Sequence record: OZ335961.1
DNA length: 64,000 bases
From: a phage
Reading direction: 5' to 3' (one strand)
Position 1 is the first letter of the stretch, and the number at the start of each line of letters is the position of its first letter. The notes under the pieces were generated by a model, which was not told where the DNA came from, ran no database searches, and saw only the letters and a program-made list of their open reading frames with translations. Positions 6,252 through 50,091 of this stretch are shown piece after piece. Position numbers and translations under genes: made by a program.

Positions 6252-7211
6252 TCACTTCCACTGCATTTCGCATGCCAATTGAATGAAAAGATATGCTAAA
6301 TGTAATTCCGTATTAGCCGCAATTCCATGATACTGGTTATTTTCACCAACAATTTCATACATACGAATAATACTTTGCGGAGTTACGCGTGTATAGATTT
6401 CTTCGGCAAGTTTACCTACGAACCACGAATAATCAGCTGCATATTTTGGCGCTAAAGCTCTGAGCTGTTTAACATCTTTATTTTTGAGAGATTCAAGAAC
6501 ATCATCAATAGCACCACGATCGTTAGTAACCAGTGATAAAATACCAGCATCCAAAACACCTTTAGATGAATAACTATCGAGCTCGCCAATAGTTTTACGA
6601 AAATCAGGAAAATTCTTTTTAACCAAAGCTGCTACAACTTTCATATCAGCTATAGCAATTCCTTCATGCTTACAGATTTCAGTCAATCGACGAATCATCT
6701 GCTTCATCATTTCAATTTTATCTTCATCGGTTGGTTGACCGAATGTAATAACTCGACAGCGTGATTGAAGTGGTTTAATAATACCATCAATATTGTTAGC
6801 AGTAATAATAATACTACAGTTTGAACTATAAGCTTCCATAAATGAACGAAGATGTCGCTGAGACTCTGCTAACCCTGAACGGTCAAATTCATCAATAACG
6901 ATTACTTTTTGACGACCATCAAATGAAGCTGCGCTAGCAAAATTAGTCAAAGGACCACGAACGAAATCAATTTTACAATCTGACCCATTTACAAACATCA
7001 TATCAGCATTTACATCATGACACAATGCTTTTGCTACAGTTGTTTTACCTGTTCCTGGAGAAGGAGAATGAAGAATAATATGTGGAATCTTACCTTTACT
7101 TGTAATAGATTTAAAGGTTTCTTTATCAAAGGCGGGAAGAATACATTCATCGATAGTAGATGGACGATATTTCTGTTCAAGAATGTGTTCTTTTTCATTT
7201 ACAGTAATCAT
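6252..7211 (-). CDS. 44: Clamp loader ATPase gp44
   Basis: Walker A GTGKT; ATG at 7211 (MITVNEKEH) with GAGGA SD; ORF-track start at 7226 is TTG. Confidence 0.95.
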
Positions 7212-39205: not shown

Positions 39206-39508
39206 TTATTTGCCTTTAATTACTTTAGCTGCTTCGATAGCCGCTTGCTGAAGGTCATCCATAGACATACCGAATTTAGAAGCAAAGTTATCAATTTTCT
39301 TTTCGACGGCATTCAAAGGCTTGGCCTGTTTACCTTCATTAGCGCCAGGAAGAGCGAGAATACGCTCTTTGTCAATATAAAGGCTTACAAGTTTCTTACG
39401 GTCTTTATCGGACAAATCATGAAATGAATGGGCCTTTTTATTTATAGCGGCTTCTAATTTACCTGCACTCACTCGCGCTTCAGTAATAAATTCTTGATAT
39501 GTTTTCAT
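39206..39508 (-). CDS. ipII: Internal protein II
   Basis: 100 aa; N-terminal capsid-targeting sequence MKTYQEFITEA; adjacent to ipIII and e as in T4. Confidence 0.75.
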   Translation of the reverse strand: MKTYQEFITEARVSAGKLEAAINKKAHSFHDLSDKDRKKLVSLYIDKERILALPGANEGKQAKPLNAVEKKIDNFASKFGMSMDDLQQAAIEAAKVIKGK

Positions 39509-39549: not shown

Positions 39550-40125
39550 TTAATTACCACGGGCTGCATTAGCAACGGCGTAAGCGTACTGAACATTAGC
39601 GTCTTTAAACGTACCTTTAGAGGTATCTAGTTCTGCCTTAAAGCCGCCTTTAGTCATAACCTCAGCGAATTCTTTACGGAAAGCCATTGCATCAAGACCT
39701 TTCCATGTCGATTTGTGCTTGGCGAATTCAAGACCAGCGTAGTTGACAGCCTTAGCCAATTTATTGTCAATAACCCATTTACCTGCTTTAGGCACAAACA
39801 CCGGGCCTTTCTGTTTAGAGAACAGTTTTAAATTCCAGCGACGAAGATCACCGTCAGCTTTAACAAAAGCTGCGTCCAAGTTACTAGCAACAACATCTTG
39901 AATATGGCCAAATTTAAGCCCATCAACTTCAATATTTAGATCGGTACGCCAGCGAAGTCCTTCCCAAGCGAAAGCTTTAAAGTCGGAAGCTTTTGTAGCT
40001 AAGTATCGTTCAATAGGGGCTGTTTTAGGGTCAAAACCGTTTCCTCGGTAAGTCCACTCATCTTTATTAATGCCTTTGGCCTTTTCCACAGAAGCTTCAG
40101 CGATAAATTCTTTATACGTTTTCAT
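39550..40125 (-). CDS. ipIII: Internal protein III
   Basis: 191 aa; capsid-targeting sequence MKTYKEFIAEA; basic protein. Confidence 0.75.
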   Translation of the reverse strand: MKTYKEFIAEASVEKAKGINKDEWTYRGNGFDPKTAPIERYLATKASDFKAFAWEGLRWRTDLNIEVDGLKFGHIQDVVASNLDAAFVKADGDLRRWNLKLFSKQKGPVFVPKAGKWVIDNKLAKAVNYAGLEFAKHKSTWKGLDAMAFRKEFAEVMTKGGFKAELDTSKGTFKDANVQYAYAVANAARGN

Positions 40126-40158: not shown

Positions 40159-40193
40159 GAATATACTATCACAGTTCTAGAAGAAAGTAAACA
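40159..40193 (-). promoter_or_regulatory. T4-type early promoter upstream of ipIII
   Basis: GTTTACT then 17 nt then TGTGATAGTAT. Confidence 0.5.
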
Positions 40194-43702: not shown

Positions 43703-44020
43703 TTATTTCATATTATTGAAATATTCTTCTGCGATTTCGTCGTTATCGTGGTAAACTTTAGAAGACAGTTTAACATAACCTTCAGCAGTGAACATATTAA
43801 TCACAACCTTTACAGTATACCACTGTCCGTCTTCATTACCCATTACTGCGTAAGTTTCAAACATCGGATGGTCAGGACCGATAACTTTAATATCATTCAC
43901 TGTACGACCAAAATCTTCTGAAACGCATTTCATAAAGAAGTTGAACAGTTCGCCGTAATTATCCATTTCATTCTCCAAGTTGTTTTTCTGTATCAGTAGT
44001 TGATAGTTGTATAGTACCAT
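43703..44020 (-). CDS. Hypothetical protein
   Basis: 105 aa; early promoter copy upstream. Confidence 0.5.
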   Translation of the reverse strand: MVLYNYQLLIQKNNLENEMDNYGELFNFFMKCVSEDFGRTVNDIKVIGPDHPMFETYAVMGNEDGQWYTVKVVINMFTAEGYVKLSSKVYHDNDEIAEEYFNNMK

Positions 44021-44041
44021 GGAAGAACAGGGATGTAAACA
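44008..44041 (-). promoter_or_regulatory. T4-type early promoter
   Basis: Conserved GTTTACA / TGGTACTAT / ACAACTATCAACT element. Confidence 0.55.
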
Positions 44042-44172: not shown

Positions 44173-44199
44173 CAAAAAGCCCTATCATTTAGATAGGGA
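44173..44199 (-). terminator. Intrinsic terminator
   Basis: Hairpin CCCTATC..GATAGGG followed by U-run in mRNA sense. Confidence 0.55.
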
Positions 44200-44206
44200 T
44201 TTAAAA

Positions 44207-44770
44207 TTATTTACCTAGTTTAGTTATTATAGCTTCGGCAGCAGCTTTTAGCTTAGATGCGGTGTTAATACGATTTTTAATTTCAGTATACGCATCGCCA
44301 AGAACATCAAGGCTATCAGAATAAACACTTACACTATTGCGTTCGCTATTTGAAATAGAACCTTTAGTTTTACGATCAAAATCGGTGTACACGTCTTGAA
44401 GATCACGGGCTGCCTTCTTTGCATCATCCAATGCGTCAAGAGCTTTATTTAAAGCATTAACATATTTTTTAGTGTCAAACATATTCTTAGAAATTTTAAC
44501 AGGTGCACGTTCAGGAGTAGCTAATGCAGATTTAGGAACCTGAGCGCCAGATGCCAGTTTCTTAGAAATTTTGAAAAATGCTTTATTGAATTTATTTTCT
44601 TGACTCATCGTAAAAGAACTATTATCGATGTTGTACATTTCAATAGCTTTAGCTTTCCACTTAAGAAAATCGCCGCGGTCTTTTGGGTCTAATTGGAAGA
44701 ATACTTTAGTAAGATCTGCTTCAGATGGTAATTTTGCTGCTTCGGTTAAAAATTCGGCATAGGTTTTCAT
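44207..44770 (-). CDS. Internal-protein-like protein with capsid-targeting sequence
   Basis: 187 aa; N-term MKTYAEFLTEA matches the IP capsid-targeting consensus. Confidence 0.6.
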   Translation of the reverse strand: MKTYAEFLTEAAKLPSEADLTKVFFQLDPKDRGDFLKWKAKAIEMYNIDNSSFTMSQENKFNKAFFKISKKLASGAQVPKSALATPERAPVKISKNMFDTKKYVNALNKALDALDDAKKAARDLQDVYTDFDRKTKGSISNSERNSVSVYSDSLDVLGDAYTEIKNRINTASKLKAAAEAIITKLGK

Positions 44771-44860
44771 TTAAAATCCTTGAAATAATTTATCGGTTGG
44801 TTATTAATTATTTATTACTTTGTTATTATCCGTAACAGCATTCTATATGTGATTCAAACT

Positions 44861-44889
44861 AAAAAGCCCCAACCTTTTGGTCGGGGCTA
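44861..44889 (-). terminator. Intrinsic terminator
   Basis: Hairpin GCCCCGACC..GGTTGGGGC plus U-run (mRNA sense). Confidence 0.6.
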
Positions 44890-44895
44890 AGAATG

Positions 44896-45369
44896 TTATT
44901 TGATTTGTTTAGCAGACCAAATGCGGTCTTTAATAATTTTTTGGATGTCTTCAACATACTCAAGAGAGTGAACATGTGGATTATCTTTGAAACTATAAGC
45001 ACGGGCTAACTTTTGGCCTTCGGTTTTGATTACTAAAAGCTCTTTAAGGATAGCTTCATATTTAGCGATAATTCCTTTAACGATATTTTTTTCTTGTGCA
45101 GCTTTAGGATCTGCTTTAGGAGCAGGTTTACCCGAAGCCTTTGCAAAAGCAGCGCCAGTAGCAACTAGACTTTTCCAGGCCATACTAACTGCATTTCCCG
45201 TAAATCCTTCTGCTTTCATGTCGCGAGCAAATTGGAATCGTGATTCGTCAGAAGCATCTTTATAGGAATATTTACCCGCTGCAATGGCTGCTTTTGCGAC
45301 AGCTTGAATTTCGGTGCTAGATGCTTCATTTAACACCGCTTCATTTAAAAATTGAGCATATGATTTCAT
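44896..45369 (-). CDS. Internal-protein-like protein with capsid-targeting sequence
   Basis: 157 aa; N-term MKSYAQFLNEA; TATAAATA late promoter upstream. Confidence 0.6.
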   Translation of the reverse strand: MKSYAQFLNEAVLNEASSTEIQAVAKAAIAAGKYSYKDASDESRFQFARDMKAEGFTGNAVSMAWKSLVATGAAFAKASGKPAPKADPKAAQEKNIVKGIIAKYEAILKELLVIKTEGQKLARAYSFKDNPHVHSLEYVEDIQKIIKDRIWSAKQIK

Positions 45370-45409
45370 CTTATTTCCTGTTTTAATTCGTGGATTTAAT
45401 ATACTACTG

Positions 45410-45417
45410 TATTTATA
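45410..45417 (-). promoter_or_regulatory. Late promoter TATAAATA
   Basis: Minus-strand TATAAATA about 40 nt upstream of the 45369 ATG. Confidence 0.5.
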
Positions 45418-45420
45418 CTA

Positions 45421-45447
45421 AAAAGCCCCAACCTTTCGGCTGGGGCT
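45421..45447 (-). terminator. Intrinsic terminator at the end of the tRNA/stable RNA transcription unit
   Basis: Hairpin AGCCCCAGCC-GAAA-GGTTGGGGCT plus U-run (mRNA sense). Confidence 0.6.
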
Positions 45448-45763
45448 AAGCCTTGCGGCAACCTTGTCGGGGTTCCACCTGCTAAGGCAAGTGTTTGTAC
45501 GAAACGCCGGGATTCGAACCCGGTTATTAAGCAGTTGACGCTACTCAATATTTTTAAAAGGCCATATCTCGACCATATCCGAACGTTCCGTCAAAAACGC
45601 TACTCGGCTTACGGCAAAGATATTTCCTCGAATCGATAATTCTGTGCGCCGTTTCAGCTGTGATGTAAGGGGGCATTAACAGATCGTAAAGATTTGTTAA
45701 TGCCAGTCCTTACCCAGGGAACATCAGTCCGACGACTTACCGGTAGCGACCCGGTTTCTTGTT
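45448..45763 (-). ncRNA. Structured small stable RNA region downstream of tRNA-Arg (analogous to T4 species 1/2 RNAs)
   Basis: No ORF; T-arm-like CCGGGUUCGAAUCCCGG at about 45507-45523; nested 9-bp stem GGCATTAAC..GTTAATGCC. Confidence 0.35.
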
Positions 45764-45839
45764 TGGTCGAGGCAGTAGGGATCGAACCTACGACCTAGGA
45801 CTTAGAAGGTCCTTGCTCTTCCTTCTGAGCTATGCCTCG
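45764..45839 (-). tRNA. tRNA-Arg (anticodon UCU)
   Basis: Manual cloverleaf: 7-bp acceptor CGAGGCA/TGCCTCG, T-loop TTCGATC, anticodon loop CUUCUAA, CCA encoded. Confidence 0.8.
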
Positions 45840-45843
45840 TATT

Positions 45844-45918
45844 TGGCGGACATGCATGGATTCGAACCATGGACCAATTGATTAACAGTCAACTGCTCTA
45901 CCACTGAGCTACACATCC
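45844..45918 (-). tRNA. tRNA-Asn (anticodon GUU)
   Basis: Manual cloverleaf: D-arm GCTCAGTGGTAGAGC, anticodon loop CUGUUAA, T-loop TTCGAAT, CCA encoded. Confidence 0.75.
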
Positions 45919-45922
45919 AAAT

Positions 45923-46009
45923 TGGTGGGGAGTGGTGGAGTCGAACCACCCGAGTCGCAATGACAATGGATTTACAGTCCACACCGCTACCTCTACGGGA
46001 TAACTCCCC
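45923..46009 (-). tRNA. tRNA-Tyr (anticodon GUA), long variable arm
   Basis: Manual cloverleaf: acceptor GGGGAGT/ACTCCCC, anticodon loop CUGUAAA, 15-nt extra arm, CCA encoded. Confidence 0.7.
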
Positions 46010-46018
46010 AAATTAATT

Positions 46019-46093
46019 TGGTGGCCCTGGGTGGAATTGAACCACCGTCTGGCGATTATGAGTCGCTTGCTTGAACCTTCCAGCTACAGGGCC
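46019..46093 (-). tRNA. tRNA with anticodon CAU (Ile or Met)
   Basis: Manual cloverleaf: acceptor GGCCCTG/CAGGGCC, anticodon loop CUCAUAA, CCA encoded. Confidence 0.7.
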
Positions 46094-46094
46094 T

Positions 46095-46170
46095 TGGTGC
46101 TGATTGACGGAATCGAACCGCCGACCTTCTCATTACAAGTGAGTTGCTCTACCTACTGAGCTAAATCAGC
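46095..46170 (-). tRNA. tRNA-Thr (anticodon UGU)
   Basis: Manual cloverleaf: D-arm GCTCAGTAGGTAGAGC, anticodon loop CUUGUAA, CCA encoded. Confidence 0.8.
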
Positions 46171-46175
46171 AAAAC

Positions 46176-46265
46176 TGGCGGAGGCGATAGGATTTGAACC
46201 TATGAGTCGCCGGAGCGACTGCCGGTTTTCAAGACCGGTGCATTAAACCACTCTGCCACGCCTCC
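46176..46265 (-). tRNA. tRNA-Ser (anticodon UGA), long variable arm
   Basis: Manual cloverleaf: acceptor GGAGGCG, anticodon loop CUUGAAA, T-loop TTCAAAT, CCA encoded. Confidence 0.8.
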
Positions 46266-46271
46266 AAATAT

Positions 46272-46880
46272 TTATATATTGTTAATTTGATTTAGAATTC
46301 TTTTTGCTTGAGTATGACTTACGCCAATATGCTTAGCATATTTAGATAATTCACCGCGCTTAGAAAAATCATATAATTTAGAAATTTCTATTCTTCTTTT
46401 TCTTTCATCCGCAGAAACTTTTGCTTCGTTCGCTTTTGCTATTTTACGTTTAGCTTCTTGAGAATGAGTTTTACCAGCAAAGCCATTCTTCATTAATCCA
46501 TTTGAAGACCATCCTTTTAATTTTCCGTTAGAATGTGCCTTTTTAACACCCAATGAAATTAATTCGCGTTGCTGATCTGTCATAGGATAATTATTTATAT
46601 GATCCCATCCACCTTCACCGCCAAGTTTTAAATTATACACATCTGGTCTATTTAAAAACTCTTCTGTAACAATATTTTTCTCGGCTTCAAGCATAGATTC
46701 TTTATCATCAAAATACTCTAATATTTCTTTAGAGAAATTTTCTATACCATACTTATCTTGGGCTCGTTTTAATAATTTACCAGAACCCATATATCCATCA
46801 TCTAAATTTTCGGTAGAATGCACACCAATATAAATTTTATTATTAATTTTATTTGTTATTTTATAAAGATAAAAATGCAT
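46272..46880 (-). CDS. GIY-YIG homing endonuclease (Seg-like) inside the tRNA cluster
   Basis: Motifs FYLYKITN..KIYIGV; ATG 46880 with SD AGGGA; ORF-track start 46922 would abut tRNA-Gly. Confidence 0.8.
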   Translation of the reverse strand: MHFYLYKITNKINNKIYIGVHSTENLDDGYMGSGKLLKRAQDKYGIENFSKEILEYFDDKESMLEAEKNIVTEEFLNRPDVYNLKLGGEGGWDHINNYPMTDQQRELISLGVKKAHSNGKLKGWSSNGLMKNGFAGKTHSQEAKRKIAKANEAKVSADERKRRIEISKLYDFSKRGELSKYAKHIGVSHTQAKRILNQINNI

Positions 46881-46926
46881 ATCAGTCCCTAATAAAGAAC
46901 TGAGCGTCTCACGACGAGTCATAAAT

Positions 46927-47000
<74 letters not shown>

Positions 47001-47005
47001 AAATT

Positions 47006-47092
47006 TGGTGCGAGAAGTGGGACTCGAACCCACAAGGAAATCATTCCGCAGCATTTTAAGTGCTGTGCCTTTACCAATTTGACCATTCTCGC
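47006..47092 (-). tRNA. tRNA-Leu (anticodon UAA), long variable arm
   Basis: Manual cloverleaf: acceptor GCGAGAA/TTCTCGC, anticodon loop CUUAAAA, CCA encoded. Confidence 0.8.
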
Positions 47093-47093
47093 G

Positions 47094-47166
47094 CTGGGAA
47101 TAAAGGACTCGAACCTTTGCATCCTGGAATCAAAATCCAGTGCCTTACCAACTTGGCTAATTCCCA
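47094..47166 (-). tRNA. tRNA-Gln (anticodon UUG), CCA not encoded
   Basis: Manual cloverleaf: acceptor TGGGAAT/ATTCCCA, D-arm GCCAAGTTGGTAAGGC, anticodon loop UUUUGAU. Confidence 0.75.
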
Positions 47167-47252
47167 ATTATTAACAAAGGCTCTCAAACAAGAACCCTTG
47201 ATGATAGAGGGTATTAATCAGTGCGATATAAGTTAATAATAACAAATATTTC

Positions 47253-47768
47253 TTAAAGCAAATTAAACATTTTAACGGTCGGTAAAACAATTTCTTCTTC
47301 GATATAAGCAAATTCTACATGTTCAACTACACGCAAGAAATCATATTCATAATATTCAGAAGCATGACCAAGAATATCAATGAGGCCTTCAGATATCTTA
47401 TTACCATTCACAAAGAATAAGTCAAATACGCGTTCTTCATCTTCTTCGGATTTATTACCAAGTTCAACTTCTATATCAAAGACCTTTTTAATGAATTCTG
47501 GATAAAGTTGGTCTGAGAACAGTCCTTCAACCAAATATTCATATATAAAAAGCTCTTGCTCGCTGAATAAACCATTACCACAATAACGGTCAGCTTTGGT
47601 GCTAGAATGACGGCTCTTAAACTTCTTCAAAAGATATTTAAATTGTTGGAGCTCATGCTCTTCTACGCCAAACAGTGTTTTAGTTTTATAGTTGTCACCA
47701 TCATTTTCATAGGTAGTGACATCAATTACGTAACCCTTAGGAATTGTGCTGCCTAAACGAATATACAT
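47253..47768 (-). CDS. Hypothetical acidic protein
   Basis: 171 aa tiled ORF upstream of the tRNA cluster. Confidence 0.55.
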   Translation of the reverse strand: MYIRLGSTIPKGYVIDVTTYENDGDNYKTKTLFGVEEHELQQFKYLLKKFKSRHSSTKADRYCGNGLFSEQELFIYEYLVEGLFSDQLYPEFIKKVFDIEVELGNKSEEDEERVFDLFFVNGNKISEGLIDILGHASEYYEYDFLRVVEHVEFAYIEEEIVLPTVKMFNLL

Positions 47769-48064
47769 TTGCTCACCATATTAATGTAAGTATATTTAAT
47801 ACATTCAAGACCCAAAGGATTCTTGAAAATATCATATTCAAGAGGACCTTTTTCTGTTTCAATAAAGAAATCAAAATTTACTGTATTAAATTTACGGTCT
47901 TCCTTTACTAATTTAACCTGTGAAGACGAACGGTCAATGTAAACCTTTTCAACTTCAAAACACGTTAAAATGCCATAATCATCAATCAAGGCTTTAGCTG
48001 CTTCTTGATCATATTTATATCCATTTTCAATGGATGATACTTTAGCATAAAGAATCATTATCAA
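47753..48064 (-). CDS. Hypothetical protein
   Basis: 103 aa tiled ORF. Confidence 0.5.
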   Translation of the reverse strand: MIMILYAKVSSIENGYKYDQEAAKALIDDYGILTCFEVEKVYIDRSSSQVKLVKEDRKFNTVNFDFFIETEKGPLEYDIFKNPLGLECIKYTYINMVSKCIFV

Positions 48065-48480
48065 CCTTCATCAACAATAGTATGCGTATTGGCATTAACT
48101 ATTTGCCACCAATCAAAGCGATTAGAACCATACATCGGTTTGTTTTCATTTTCTTTGATAATATCACGGAGTTCATCTTCGGTGGCGGCTTTCGCGATTA
48201 AATCAGCATATCCACCGCGAGGATAATAATTATCACCTGCAAAAAGTAAAAAGTTTGGTTTAATGTTATTGAACTCTTCAAGAGTAATAACTTTTCCTGA
48301 CGGTTGAACAATCTCTACATATTTATATCCCAATTTTTGAGCCGCATCTACTGCTTCAAGCAAAGTATCATGAGCCCATCCAATTTGACAACCTGGCTTT
48401 TCAGATGGATTAGCCTGATAATCCGCATACACTTTATACATTCTATTCACCTTTAGAAATTTTATCCATAACAATAGCAA
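48061..48480 (-). CDS. Hypothetical protein
   Basis: 139 aa; likely start MYKVYADYQ. Confidence 0.5.
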   Translation of the reverse strand: MLLLWIKFLKVNRMYKVYADYQANPSEKPGCQIGWAHDTLLEAVDAAQKLGYKYVEIVQPSGKVITLEEFNNIKPNFLLFAGDNYYPRGGYADLIAKAATEDELRDIIKENENKPMYGSNRFDWWQIVNANTHTIVDEG

Positions 48481-48628
48481 TTAAACCAATTAAAAATGCT
48501 ACTACAAGTGAAAACACATTTTCTGCTGTAGTCAATAATCCGCATATAAATCCAACAAACATTGAAAAACTAAAAGCGGAAGCAGAAATTGCAATAGCAA
48601 CATTTCGAATTAATTCACAACGTTTCAT
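48443..48628 (-). CDS. Small membrane protein
   Basis: 61 aa, two hydrophobic helices, SD GAGGAG. Confidence 0.5.
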   Translation of the reverse strand: MKRCELIRNVAIAISASAFSFSMFVGFICGLLTTAENVFSLVVAFLIGLIAIVMDKISKGE

Positions 48629-48654
48629 TTTATTCTCCTCGGTAGTTGATAGGG

Positions 48655-48687
48655 TAATAGTATCACAACTAAAACCCTATGTAAACA
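48655..48687 (-). promoter_or_regulatory. T4-type early promoter
   Basis: GTTTACA then 17 nt then TGTGATACTAT. Confidence 0.55.
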
Positions 48688-48704
48688 ACTTTGTGAAATA
48701 TTTA

Positions 48705-48992
48705 TTACAAAAGATTTTTAGCAATAATCTTGAGATGTGCCGCAGAAATGTGTTTAGCTTTAAACAACGCAGTTTCTTCAGCAGGAGAGATAATGATTGT
48801 AGCACCATCCTTTTTAGCAGACCACCCATCACCTAGATAAACAGTACCTTTGATTTCTTCGCCATCAACCAGACTAATCATTGGTTTACCTTCTCGTCCT
48901 TTATTTGCTTTAATAACTTCAGAAGTAAGAGTAGCTTCGGTAATAGTAGAAACTGGGGTAATTGTAGAAGTAAATTCTTTAAATGTTTTCAT
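48705..48992 (-). CDS. Internal protein (ipI-locus member)
   Basis: 95 aa; capsid-targeting sequence MKTFKEFTS; own early promoter. Confidence 0.7.
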   Translation of the reverse strand: MKTFKEFTSTITPVSTITEATLTSEVIKANKGREGKPMISLVDGEEIKGTVYLGDGWSAKKDGATIIISPAEETALFKAKHISAAHLKIIAKNLL

Positions 48993-49018
48993 TTTATTTT
49001 CCTAATTAATTTTGATGA

Positions 49019-49053
49019 GATAATGGTATCACAACTAAAACCCTATGTAAACA
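49019..49053 (-). promoter_or_regulatory. T4-type early promoter upstream of the 48705-48992 internal protein gene
   Basis: GTTTACA then 17 nt then TGTGATACCAT; near-duplicate of the 49349-49383 element. Confidence 0.55.
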
Positions 49054-49064
49054 ACTTTGTGAAA

Positions 49065-49322
49065 TTATTTTAAATCTTCTAATCGTTTCTTCATCTTAGA
49101 ACCGTTCTTAGCGATTTCGCCTGCATCAGAGCATAATGCTAAAAGAGCTTTAACTTTAGTTTGGTCTCCTTTAAAAGATGAAGGATCGACTGCAGCAGCA
49201 AGTTCTTTAATACGAGAGAAAAGACGCTCAGCTTCAGCTAAAGCCATTCCAAGCTTTACTTCCATACCGTGGGAAGATTCAGTAATAGTAGTTTTTGTAG
49301 CAAACTCTTTGAAAGTTTTCAT
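49065..49322 (-). CDS. Internal-protein-like protein (second ipI-locus member)
   Basis: 85 aa; capsid-targeting sequence MKTFKEFATK; near-identical upstream leader to the neighbouring IP gene. Confidence 0.65.
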   Translation of the reverse strand: MKTFKEFATKTTITESSHGMEVKLGMALAEAERLFSRIKELAAAVDPSSFKGDQTKVKALLALCSDAGEIAKNGSKMKKRLEDLK

Positions 49323-49348
49323 TTTATTTTCCTAATTAATTTTGATGA

Positions 49349-49383
49349 GATAATAGTATCACTACCTCATCAGCATGTAAACA
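49349..49383 (-). promoter_or_regulatory. T4-type early promoter
   Basis: GTTTACA then 17 nt then TGATACTAT. Confidence 0.55.
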
Positions 49384-49394
49384 ACTTTGTGAAA

Positions 49395-50091
<697 letters not shown>

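Follow-up and report, generated by a model that had tools for sequence, protein, structure and literature searches.

For the internal proteins (IPs) of T-even phages, the class itself, the mechanism of its targeting, the shuffling of its genes as cassettes and an anti-restriction role are already known. A capsid-targeting sequence (CTS) of 10 residues was found to be enough to package foreign proteins, among them green fluorescent protein, a nuclease and beta-galactosidase (PMC3012670, PMC9026906). According to a later account, suppressor mutations in the CTS of IPIII assigned residues 4 and 7 to targeting and residues 8 and 10 to processing (Mullaney & Black 1996, via PMC9026906), and the protease gp21 cleaves after I/L-x-E (PMC12991175). 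T-even IPs are described in reviews as diverse defence proteins that have the CTS alone in common (PMC3012670), and since 2025 all three T4 IPs have been known as specific inhibitors, Ip1, Ip2 and Ip3 each acting on a different GmrSD-type type IV restriction enzyme (PMC12373910), with no cross-protection between Ip2 and Ip3 and with Ip3 required on ECOR17 (PMC12373910; Srikant et al.). As injected proteins precede phage gene expression, they constitute the first answer to nucleases acting on the incoming DNA. Given that Ip1-3 are all GmrSD inhibitors, any further CTS protein becomes a candidate inhibitor of as yet unknown target, and a candidate host-range determinant in therapeutic T4-like phages. 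The present analysis concerns a stretch of 64,000 nucleotides from the phage sequence record OZ335961.1 (hereafter, the window), which is a mosaic Tequatrovirus (T4-like) genome, and in particular two neighbouring minus-strand genes within it, gene A and gene B (together, the pair). On balance, it seems rather likely that this genome specifies six capsid-targeted IPs at three loci, and that the proteins of the pair are packaged, processed and injected, and are likely antagonists of DNA-targeting immunity. The novelty is modest, though concrete, and consists in a widespread family of two members that occupies a third locus and, judged from its sequence, bears every hallmark of an internal protein.

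The window follows the T4 gene order, from the denV side through ipII, ipIII, e, nudE, e.2-e.8 and rnaC/rnaD to the tRNA cluster with a segB-like endonuclease, and onward to trna.2-4, ipI, 57B, 57A and gene 1. An earlier reading of the letters of the window (the original prediction) had proposed six CTS-bearing open reading frames (ORFs) in three loci. When all ATG, GTG and TTG starts on both strands were scanned for ORFs of at least 30 amino acids beginning with MK[TS][YF]x[EQ]F, exactly these six were returned in the 64 kb, at identical coordinates and all on the minus strand, and a looser CTS pattern applied to the ORF starts of the window yielded no ORF beyond them. The chance rate of the motif can be roughly estimated at 1e-3 per few hundred ORF starts, and six matches lie far above it. 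The targeting determinants Y/F4 and F7 are present in all six ORFs. Comparison of the N-termini with the gp21 cleavage consensus, a check that had been proposed together with the prediction, revealed an I/L-x-E site near the N-terminus in every case: ITE10/A in ipII, IAE10/A in ipIII, LTE10/A in gene B, LNE10/A and LNE15/A in gene A and, in longer propeptides, ITE19/A in ipI and ITE15/S in ip5 (the slash marks the predicted cut). A site of this type at residues 6-18 is found in 8% of the other ORFs. The predicted mature proteins have masses of 6-20 kDa, isoelectric points (pI) of 9.0-9.7 and net charges of +2 to +9. The description of all six as internal-protein-like is thus well supported, each combining a CTS, an N-proximal [LI]xE[ASG] gp21 site and a basic mature part, whereas the EA that was said to come right after the motif holds for ipII, ipIII and the pair (E10-A11) and not for ipI and ip5.

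On sequence grounds, four of the six genes are catalogued internal proteins (ipI, ipII, ipIII and ip5). The claim of four further IP-like ORFs besides ipII and ipIII was therefore too high, since the ORF at 48705-48992 is T4's own ipI, which had gone unrecognised, and the notion of an expanded set has to be narrowed to the pair at 44207-45369, which is new to annotation. The three IP loci assigned in this way are ipIII-ipII by gene e, ipI with ip5 by 57B, and the phrog_2280 pair in the tRNA/rnaC terminator. The features of this last locus are the following:

44896-45369, minus strand: pair gene A, putative internal protein of 157 amino acids, MKSYAQFLNE/AVLNE/ASS; matches phrog_2280 ('unknown function') with E 1.7e-60 over residues 1-157
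44207-44770, minus strand: pair gene B, putative internal protein of 187 amino acids, MKTYAEFLTE/AAKLP; matches phrog_2280 with E 2.8e-53 over residues 1-181
45424-45447, minus strand: terminator hairpin with which the tRNA/rnaC unit ends; the insertion, as compared with T4, has its left boundary here
45410-45417, minus strand: late-promoter octamer TATAAATA, directly behind the terminator hairpin and 48 nt ahead of gene A
44865-44888, minus strand: the terminator hairpin in a second copy, separating gene A from gene B, with 88% identity in 40 nt (family D3)
44809-44816, minus strand: near-consensus octamer AATAAATA, with one mismatch, 46 nt upstream of gene B; the same variant precedes the Mosigvirus homolog of gene A
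44180-44198, minus strand: terminator behind gene B, marking where the insertion has its right boundary, with a return to T4-like sequence at GGGCTTTTTGGTATCTA

Both proteins of the pair carry Y4, F7, L8 and E10, so that the four critical positions are kept in each, and the identity with the IPIII CTS amounts to 7/10 in gene B and 5/10 in gene A. The predicted mature forms have a pI of ~9.5, with a net charge of +7 to +8 for A and +9 for B, as compared with +6 for IPII and +9 for IPIII. Phage records with gene A number 512 and those with gene B 165, the annotation being 'hypothetical' in all of them, and the 5.5 kb around the locus match 1143 phage records, the top one being Shigella phage Phaginator (93.9% identity, 96% of the query); the pair is present in ~15-45% of the related phage records matched. 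Comparison of gene A with its Mosigvirus homolog gave a dN/dS of 0.085, indicating that it is a real gene under strong purifying selection. It is therefore probable, as far as sequence can tell, that A and B are additions to the known class of internal proteins, encoded at a third locus. No Ip name for either gene appears in any annotation, UniRef or NCBI name inspected, where only 'hypothetical' or 'uncharacterized' is found. The family has probably escaped annotation because T2, T4 and T6 lack the pair.

The structure of both proteins was predicted with AlphaFold2 at moderate to low confidence, with a pLDDT (predicted local distance difference test) of 72.5 for gene A, from a six-sequence alignment, and of 61.9 for gene B, from a shallow alignment. 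The two models have the same layout, comprising a low-confidence CTS helix, a three-helix N-domain (residues 18-71 in A and 17-73 in B), a low-confidence linker rich in Lys, Pro and Ala, and a long C-terminal helical hairpin (residues 88-155 in A and 100-186 in B). The linkers read KPAPKADPKAAQEK and PKSALATPERAPVK, and AKPKAAKK in the Klebsiella-phage homologs. A BLASTP alignment of A with B covers the CTS only, and the C-terminal hairpins of the two families align by hhalign (Prob 81%, E 1.3e-5); from the shared PHROG, the shared architecture and the hhalign result, A and B are probably distant paralogs. No Pfam family matched the pair above threshold, and weak matches to cytochrome b562 (17.7 bits, against a cut-off of 30), DUF5053 and DUF7890 were ruled out as sub-threshold. 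The possibility that gene A is the known 'IpIV' was likewise considered; the ipIV of phage PST also encodes 157 amino acids, yet BLASTP shows no similarity between the two.

At the position of the pair, T4, T2, T6 and PST have no coding sequence, but e.8, a ~285-nt spacer, rnaC, rnaD and tRNA-Arg, in line with the original prediction, in which T4 was not known to have IP genes at this locus. In the alignment with T4, positions ~44199-45414 of the window form an insertion, with both junctions falling in the 3' arm GGGGCTTTTT of the rnaC terminator hairpin, and a related hairpin also stands, in a separate copy, at the 3' end of each pair gene. Additionally, the locus is polymorphic: T4, T2, T6 and PST have neither gene, Shigella phage CM8 carries gene A without gene B, and both genes are present in Phaginator as well as in the window. 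The hairpin copies, the junctions and this presence pattern together suggest that the pair units are promoter-ORF-terminator cassettes, gained and lost by recombination at the hairpins. Modular shuffling of the same style has been described for the hyperplastic regions of T4-type phages (PMC4122927).

The original prediction also held that each of the CTS genes has its own early promoter, which proved true of ipI, ip5 and ipIII and not of ipII, gene A or gene B. No early promoter was found at gene A, where there is only the hairpin with TATAAATA directly behind it, and upstream of gene B there is only AATAAATA plus a weak 9/12 match to a sigma-70 promoter. The octamer TATAAATA occurs 11 times on the minus strand of the window and 5 times on the plus strand, against a chance estimate of ~8 per strand; octamers being common in AT-rich DNA, the significance of the one at gene A lies in its position and conservation. 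The octamer before A and its homologs, and the one-mismatch octamer before B, would allow expression at the prohead stage.

Homologs of the phrog_2280 type were found in five other genera, namely Jiaodavirus, Tegunavirus, Mosigvirus, Marfavirus and Winklervirus, and all are annotated as 'hypothetical'. Those of Mosigvirus (mogra_134), Jiaodavirus (KP1_122) and Winklervirus (LC53) adjoin tRNA genes, while no tRNA gene is annotated in the flanks shown of gp154+gp153 of Tegunavirus fHe-Yen9-01, a B-like plus A-like tandem, or of gp279 of Marfavirus F48. The homologs retain CTS-like N-termini (MKSYAEFLTE, MKFKEFLAE, MLQYNEFLKE/MLEYSEFLKE, MITFNDILAE and MKFKEFLSE), and outside the CTS their identity goes down to 25-67% or the C-terminal domain is swapped. 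In the five other genera a differing hairpin is followed by TATAAATA, AATAAATA or CATAAATA before the gene or gene pair, the octamers conforming to [T/A/C]ATAAATA. Since the hairpin sequences differ between genera, the architecture of hairpin plus late promoter appears to be conserved independently of sequence identity. The gene B family is of very limited reach and gave only 6 matches among 1.84 billion representatives, one of which (P0072) is a repeat-protein artefact, and a metagenomic relative of gene B, 31% identical, starts with MITFNEFLNE/SEMINE/A.

A sequence of events can be proposed from these features. The (T/A)ATAAATA promoters, for which there is support in the sequence, would drive late transcription of the pair while proheads assemble, and the decapeptide MK(T/S)YA(E/Q)FLxE would dock the proteins in the gp22 scaffolding core, in the way that the CTS of IPIII brings in any protein fused to it, to judge from the mutationally defined positions. 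Cleavage by gp21 after L-x-E10, and possibly also after L-N-E15 in gene A, would then leave basic proteins of 16 and 20 kDa in the head together with the DNA. By analogy with the known IPs, they would be injected with this DNA and be active before phage gene expression; their most likely part there would be that of accessory host-range antagonists of DNA-targeting immunity, comparable to Ip1-3 against GmrSD. Recombination would move the cassettes themselves, both at the terminator hairpins on their flanks and inside the conserved promoter/CTS sequences, and this would explain why genomes with no pair, with A only and with A plus B are found.

These steps are not equally secure. Packaging and processing of the pair can be regarded, from the sequence features, as likely with good confidence. 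Once packaging is granted, a role in counter-defence or host range is somewhat favoured by analogy over a housekeeping role in the DNA or core, and an anti-defence function of Ip5 and the pair, by the same analogy with Ip1-3, is plausible. Several observations weigh against this interpretation. The predicted fold gives no functional clue, as the best Foldseek match in the PDB has an E of 0.63 and BFVD returns only the pair's own family. Classical IP genes use early-type promoters, and within 200 nt of T4 ipI, ipII and ipIII there is no TATAAATA; the pair, in contrast, is late-only by its sequence. Internal [LI]xE sites in the mature parts number 3 against 5.8 expected (P = 0.14 by shuffling, an underpowered comparison). 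Across genera, gene A shows a strongly conserved N-domain with an invariant GKYSY. Such conservation is easier to reconcile with a conserved housekeeping role than with a fast arms race against strain-specific nucleases, and a conserved target or an association with DNA would account for it no less well than a strain-specific inhibitor would. Finally, no published virion proteome was found for any phage that carries the pair: the papers on fPS-2/65/90, Sfk20 and F48 contain no mass spectrometry (MS), with only gel electrophoresis (SDS-PAGE) for Sfk20; virion MS exists for phiR1-RT, from which the pair genes are absent; and for the Jiaodavirus phages ValerieMcCarty03/04, which have virion MS, the part of the supplement consulted held no homolog peptides or sequence, and these phages, which probably lack the genes, are not among the 49 gene-carrying records.

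An alternative is that the pair is packaged and processed and yet inhibits no defence, serving as DNA- or core-associated proteins, for instance as charge neutralisers aiding the condensation or ejection of DNA, or as protectors of incoming DNA irrespective of the target. The strongly basic character of the proteins (+7 to +9), with Lys/Pro/Ala-rich linkers that resemble DNA-binding tails, is in agreement with this, and so are the conservation of the gene A N-domain at a dN/dS unlike that of a rapidly diversifying inhibitor, and the late-only expression, which suits pure virion cargo; moreover, solid-state nuclear magnetic resonance showed that IP lysines contact DNA phosphates (PMC3012670). 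However, IPII and IPIII are equally basic and are nonetheless specific GmrSD inhibitors (PMC12373910), and the pair is dispensable in nature, with neither gene in T2, T4, T6 and PST and A only in many phages, which is the pattern of accessory host-range genes. A purely DNA- or core-associated function is considered unlikely, although it is the most serious of the alternatives.

Less probable still is that the pair is not packaged at all and consists of late cytoplasmic proteins, whose CTS-like start would be a by-product of IP-cassette recombination or of a shared translation-initiation region. Recombination within the conserved promoter, ribosome-binding site (RBS) and CTS is indeed documented for IP genes, the ipI and ip5 cassettes of the window being 85-93% identical, the CTS of gene A matches that of IPIII at only half of its positions, and no proteomic support was found for the pair in virions. 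Nevertheless, the CTS-like start has been kept in homologs of six genera whose DNA has long diverged and in which the rest of the protein has changed or been swapped, which argues for selection on the N-terminus itself. All four functionally critical positions are retained, and since a 10-residue CTS packages unrelated proteins (PMC9026906), a late protein bearing one would be hard to exclude from proheads. As for a CTS resemblance by mere chance, or pair ORFs that are not genes, the absence of annotation is all that speaks in favour, set against six strict matches where the expectation is far below one, strong PHROG matches, hundreds of conserved copies, the low dN/dS, and an RBS, promoter and terminator in place; its probability is negligible and it can be counted as already refuted.

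With packaged and injected antagonists of DNA-targeting immunity remaining the preferred reading of the pair, a wider proposal can be made, which is tentative and rather doubtful as it stands: phrog_2280 may represent a third, so far unrecognised IP locus and family of Tevenvirinae, made up of CTS-targeted two-domain proteins in at least six genera that would be expressed late and injected. The target of their GKYSY N-domain would be a conserved one, in the host or in DNA, instead of strain-specific GmrSD variants, and they would thereby differ from Ip1-3. If this were true, its mode of action would have escaped the classical work, T2, T4 and T6 all being without the genes.

The catalogued IP genes of the window and their promoters are located as follows:

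39206-39508, minus strand: ipII, 100 amino acids, CTS MKTYQEFITE/A; matches phrog_7857 'internal virion protein' with E 4.5e-55; 93/100 identical to T4 IPII
39550-40125, minus strand: ipIII, 191 amino acids, CTS MKTYKEFIAE/A; matches phrog_5341 with E 1.1e-116; 91.7% identical to T4 IPIII
40163-40192, minus strand: early-type promoter of ipIII-ipII (GTTTACT, 17 nt, TGaTAGTAT); same layout upstream of T4 ipIII
48705-48992, minus strand: ipI, 95 amino acids, with IPI* as residues 20-95 after ITE19/A; 93/95 identical to T4 IPI
49023-49052, minus strand: early promoter of ipI, in the second copy of a 123-nt cassette
49065-49322, minus strand: ip5, 85 amino acids, N-terminus MKTFKEFATKTTITE/SS; matches phrog_3499 'internal head protein' with E 1.2e-49
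49353-49382, minus strand: early promoter of ip5, part of the 123-nt promoter-RBS-CTS cassette that is repeated at ipI

The early-type promoters at ipI, ip5 and ipIII share the form TTTAC[AT], 17 nt, TG-n-TA..AT, and ipII, which follows ipIII at a distance of 41 nt, has no separate promoter. Residues 20-95 of ipI match the Pfam family PF11634 IPI_T4 with 178.7 bits (cut-off 25; E 2e-53), a family to which neither the pair nor ip5 gave a match. The ip5 product, encoded between ipI and 57B, is 85/85 identical to T6 Ip5 (UniProt Q38630) and to PST IpV; RefSeq notes use the name 'Ip5' for it, and T4 is without this gene. A 54-nt early-promoter repeat occurs three times in this region (48646-48699, 49012-49065 and 49342-49395; 80-93% identical), its copies preceding ip5, ipI and the next gene, a trna.4-like ORF at 48443-48628, and the 123-nt promoter/RBS/start-codon cassette, 85% identical between its copies at 48958-49080 and 49288-49410, is confined to ip5 and ipI. 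Promoter repeats of this kind offer ready substrates to the recombination by which ip genes are shuffled as cassettes. In CM8 (NC_054939; 6650-8772 of the stretch compared), the ipI-ip5-57B block is tandemly duplicated, with two copies of each gene plus Ip8, which shows the plasticity of that locus. At the ipIII-ipII locus, the ipII product differs by one residue (Q5K) from WKM80648.1, an 'internal virion protein' of the Klebsiella oxytoca Jiaodavirus ValerieMcCarty04, for which many peptides were obtained from purified virions (PMC13119998 supplement). A near-identical allele in another genus and host suggests, at the sequence level, a recent cross-genus exchange of an IP cassette.

The surroundings of the pair locus show further differences from T4. 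Nine tRNA genes lie at 45764-47166 (Arg, Asn, Tyr, Met, Thr, Ser, Gly, Leu and Gln), as compared with the eight of T4 (Arg, Ile, Thr, Ser, Pro, Gly, Leu and Gln), and an ORF for a GIY-YIG (SegB-like) homing endonuclease of 216 amino acids is found between tRNA-Ser and tRNA-Gly (46272-46922), T4 segB being placed elsewhere. Homologs of the T4 stable RNAs rnaC/rnaD (species 1 and 2) lie on the minus strand at ~45498-45761 with ~90% identity to T4; Rfam 15 returned only tRNAs on the window and no family detecting rnaC/rnaD. Within rnaC, 40 nt are similar to the tRNA-Arg/tRNA-Asn region (repeat D4, 70%). On the other side of the pair, the ORF at 43703-44020 (105 amino acids) has its start 18 codons further upstream than T4 e.8 and is 86/87 identical to e.8 from MDNYGELF onward; the T4-like start is the likely one, because the early promoter at 44011-44039 leaves too little room for the longer form.

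When the pair is set beside the described systems, close counterparts are T4 IPII and IPIII, which likewise have a 10-residue N-terminal CTS ending in [IL]-x-E/A and are small, basic (pI ~9.5), non-essential and polymorphic among T-even phages. The pair differs from them in having no sequence similarity past the CTS, in lying at the rnaC terminator by tRNA genes rather than in the e/denV region, in its late-type instead of early-type promoters, and in a predicted two-domain helical architecture with a Lys/Pro linker. The functional precedent of the class is T4 IPI*, which is injected with the DNA and blocks a nuclease attacking glucosyl-hydroxymethylcytosine DNA, and to whose gene product that of 48705-48992 is 98% identical. 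Neither the pair nor Ip5 resembles IPI* in sequence or fold; IPI and Ip5 have longer propeptides (19 and ~15 residues), with I-T-E downstream. As Ip1-3 share no sequence among themselves, this dissimilarity neither supports nor excludes Ip5 and the pair as GmrSD inhibitors.

The Ip4-Ip13 series of T-even phages resembles the pair in that unrelated small ORFs with only the leader motif in common occupy hyperplastic loci and undergo recombination in their flanks. Repoila, Tetart, Bouet and Krisch reportedly described, in 1994, polymorphism of IP genes at two loci, one being the ipI region and the other the ipII/III region, and are also said to have described the Ip5 of T6 and the shuffling, as cassettes, of IPs sharing only the CTS. 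The Ip5 of the window is a member of this series, and related records carry Ip4, Ip6, Ip7, Ip8 and Ip9; the pair differs from it in its third locus and in having no Ip name.

Another counterpart is Gp134 of phiR1-RT, which, like the pair, is an unannotated small CTS ORF among the tRNA genes of a Tevenvirinae phage, but has only 52 amino acids and an unrelated sequence. This 'hypothetical' protein, which begins with MKTYIEFINE, was detected in purified virions by liquid chromatography-tandem MS (LC-MS/MS; PMC6893735 supplement), so that a CTS scan does find real virion proteins outside the classical loci. The 52-amino-acid ORF MKTYIEFINEIIVKSGDKF... lies in the Tegunavirus tRNA cluster at 6421-6579 in phiR1-RT and at 1200-1358 in fHe-Yen9-01, in the stretches compared, and is annotated as 'hypothetical'.

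In its manner of mobility, the pair recalls the PeSL mobile cassettes of T4-type phages, in which accessory ORFs are likewise bounded by stem-loop/promoter motifs that serve as recombination sites. PeSLs are said to combine an early promoter with a stem-loop, as reportedly described by Arbiol et al. in 2010 and Comeau et al. in 2014. The pair is bounded in a comparable way by three related terminator hairpins, with the breakpoints inside the hairpin 3' arm; unlike in a PeSL, the hairpin here is followed by a late promoter.

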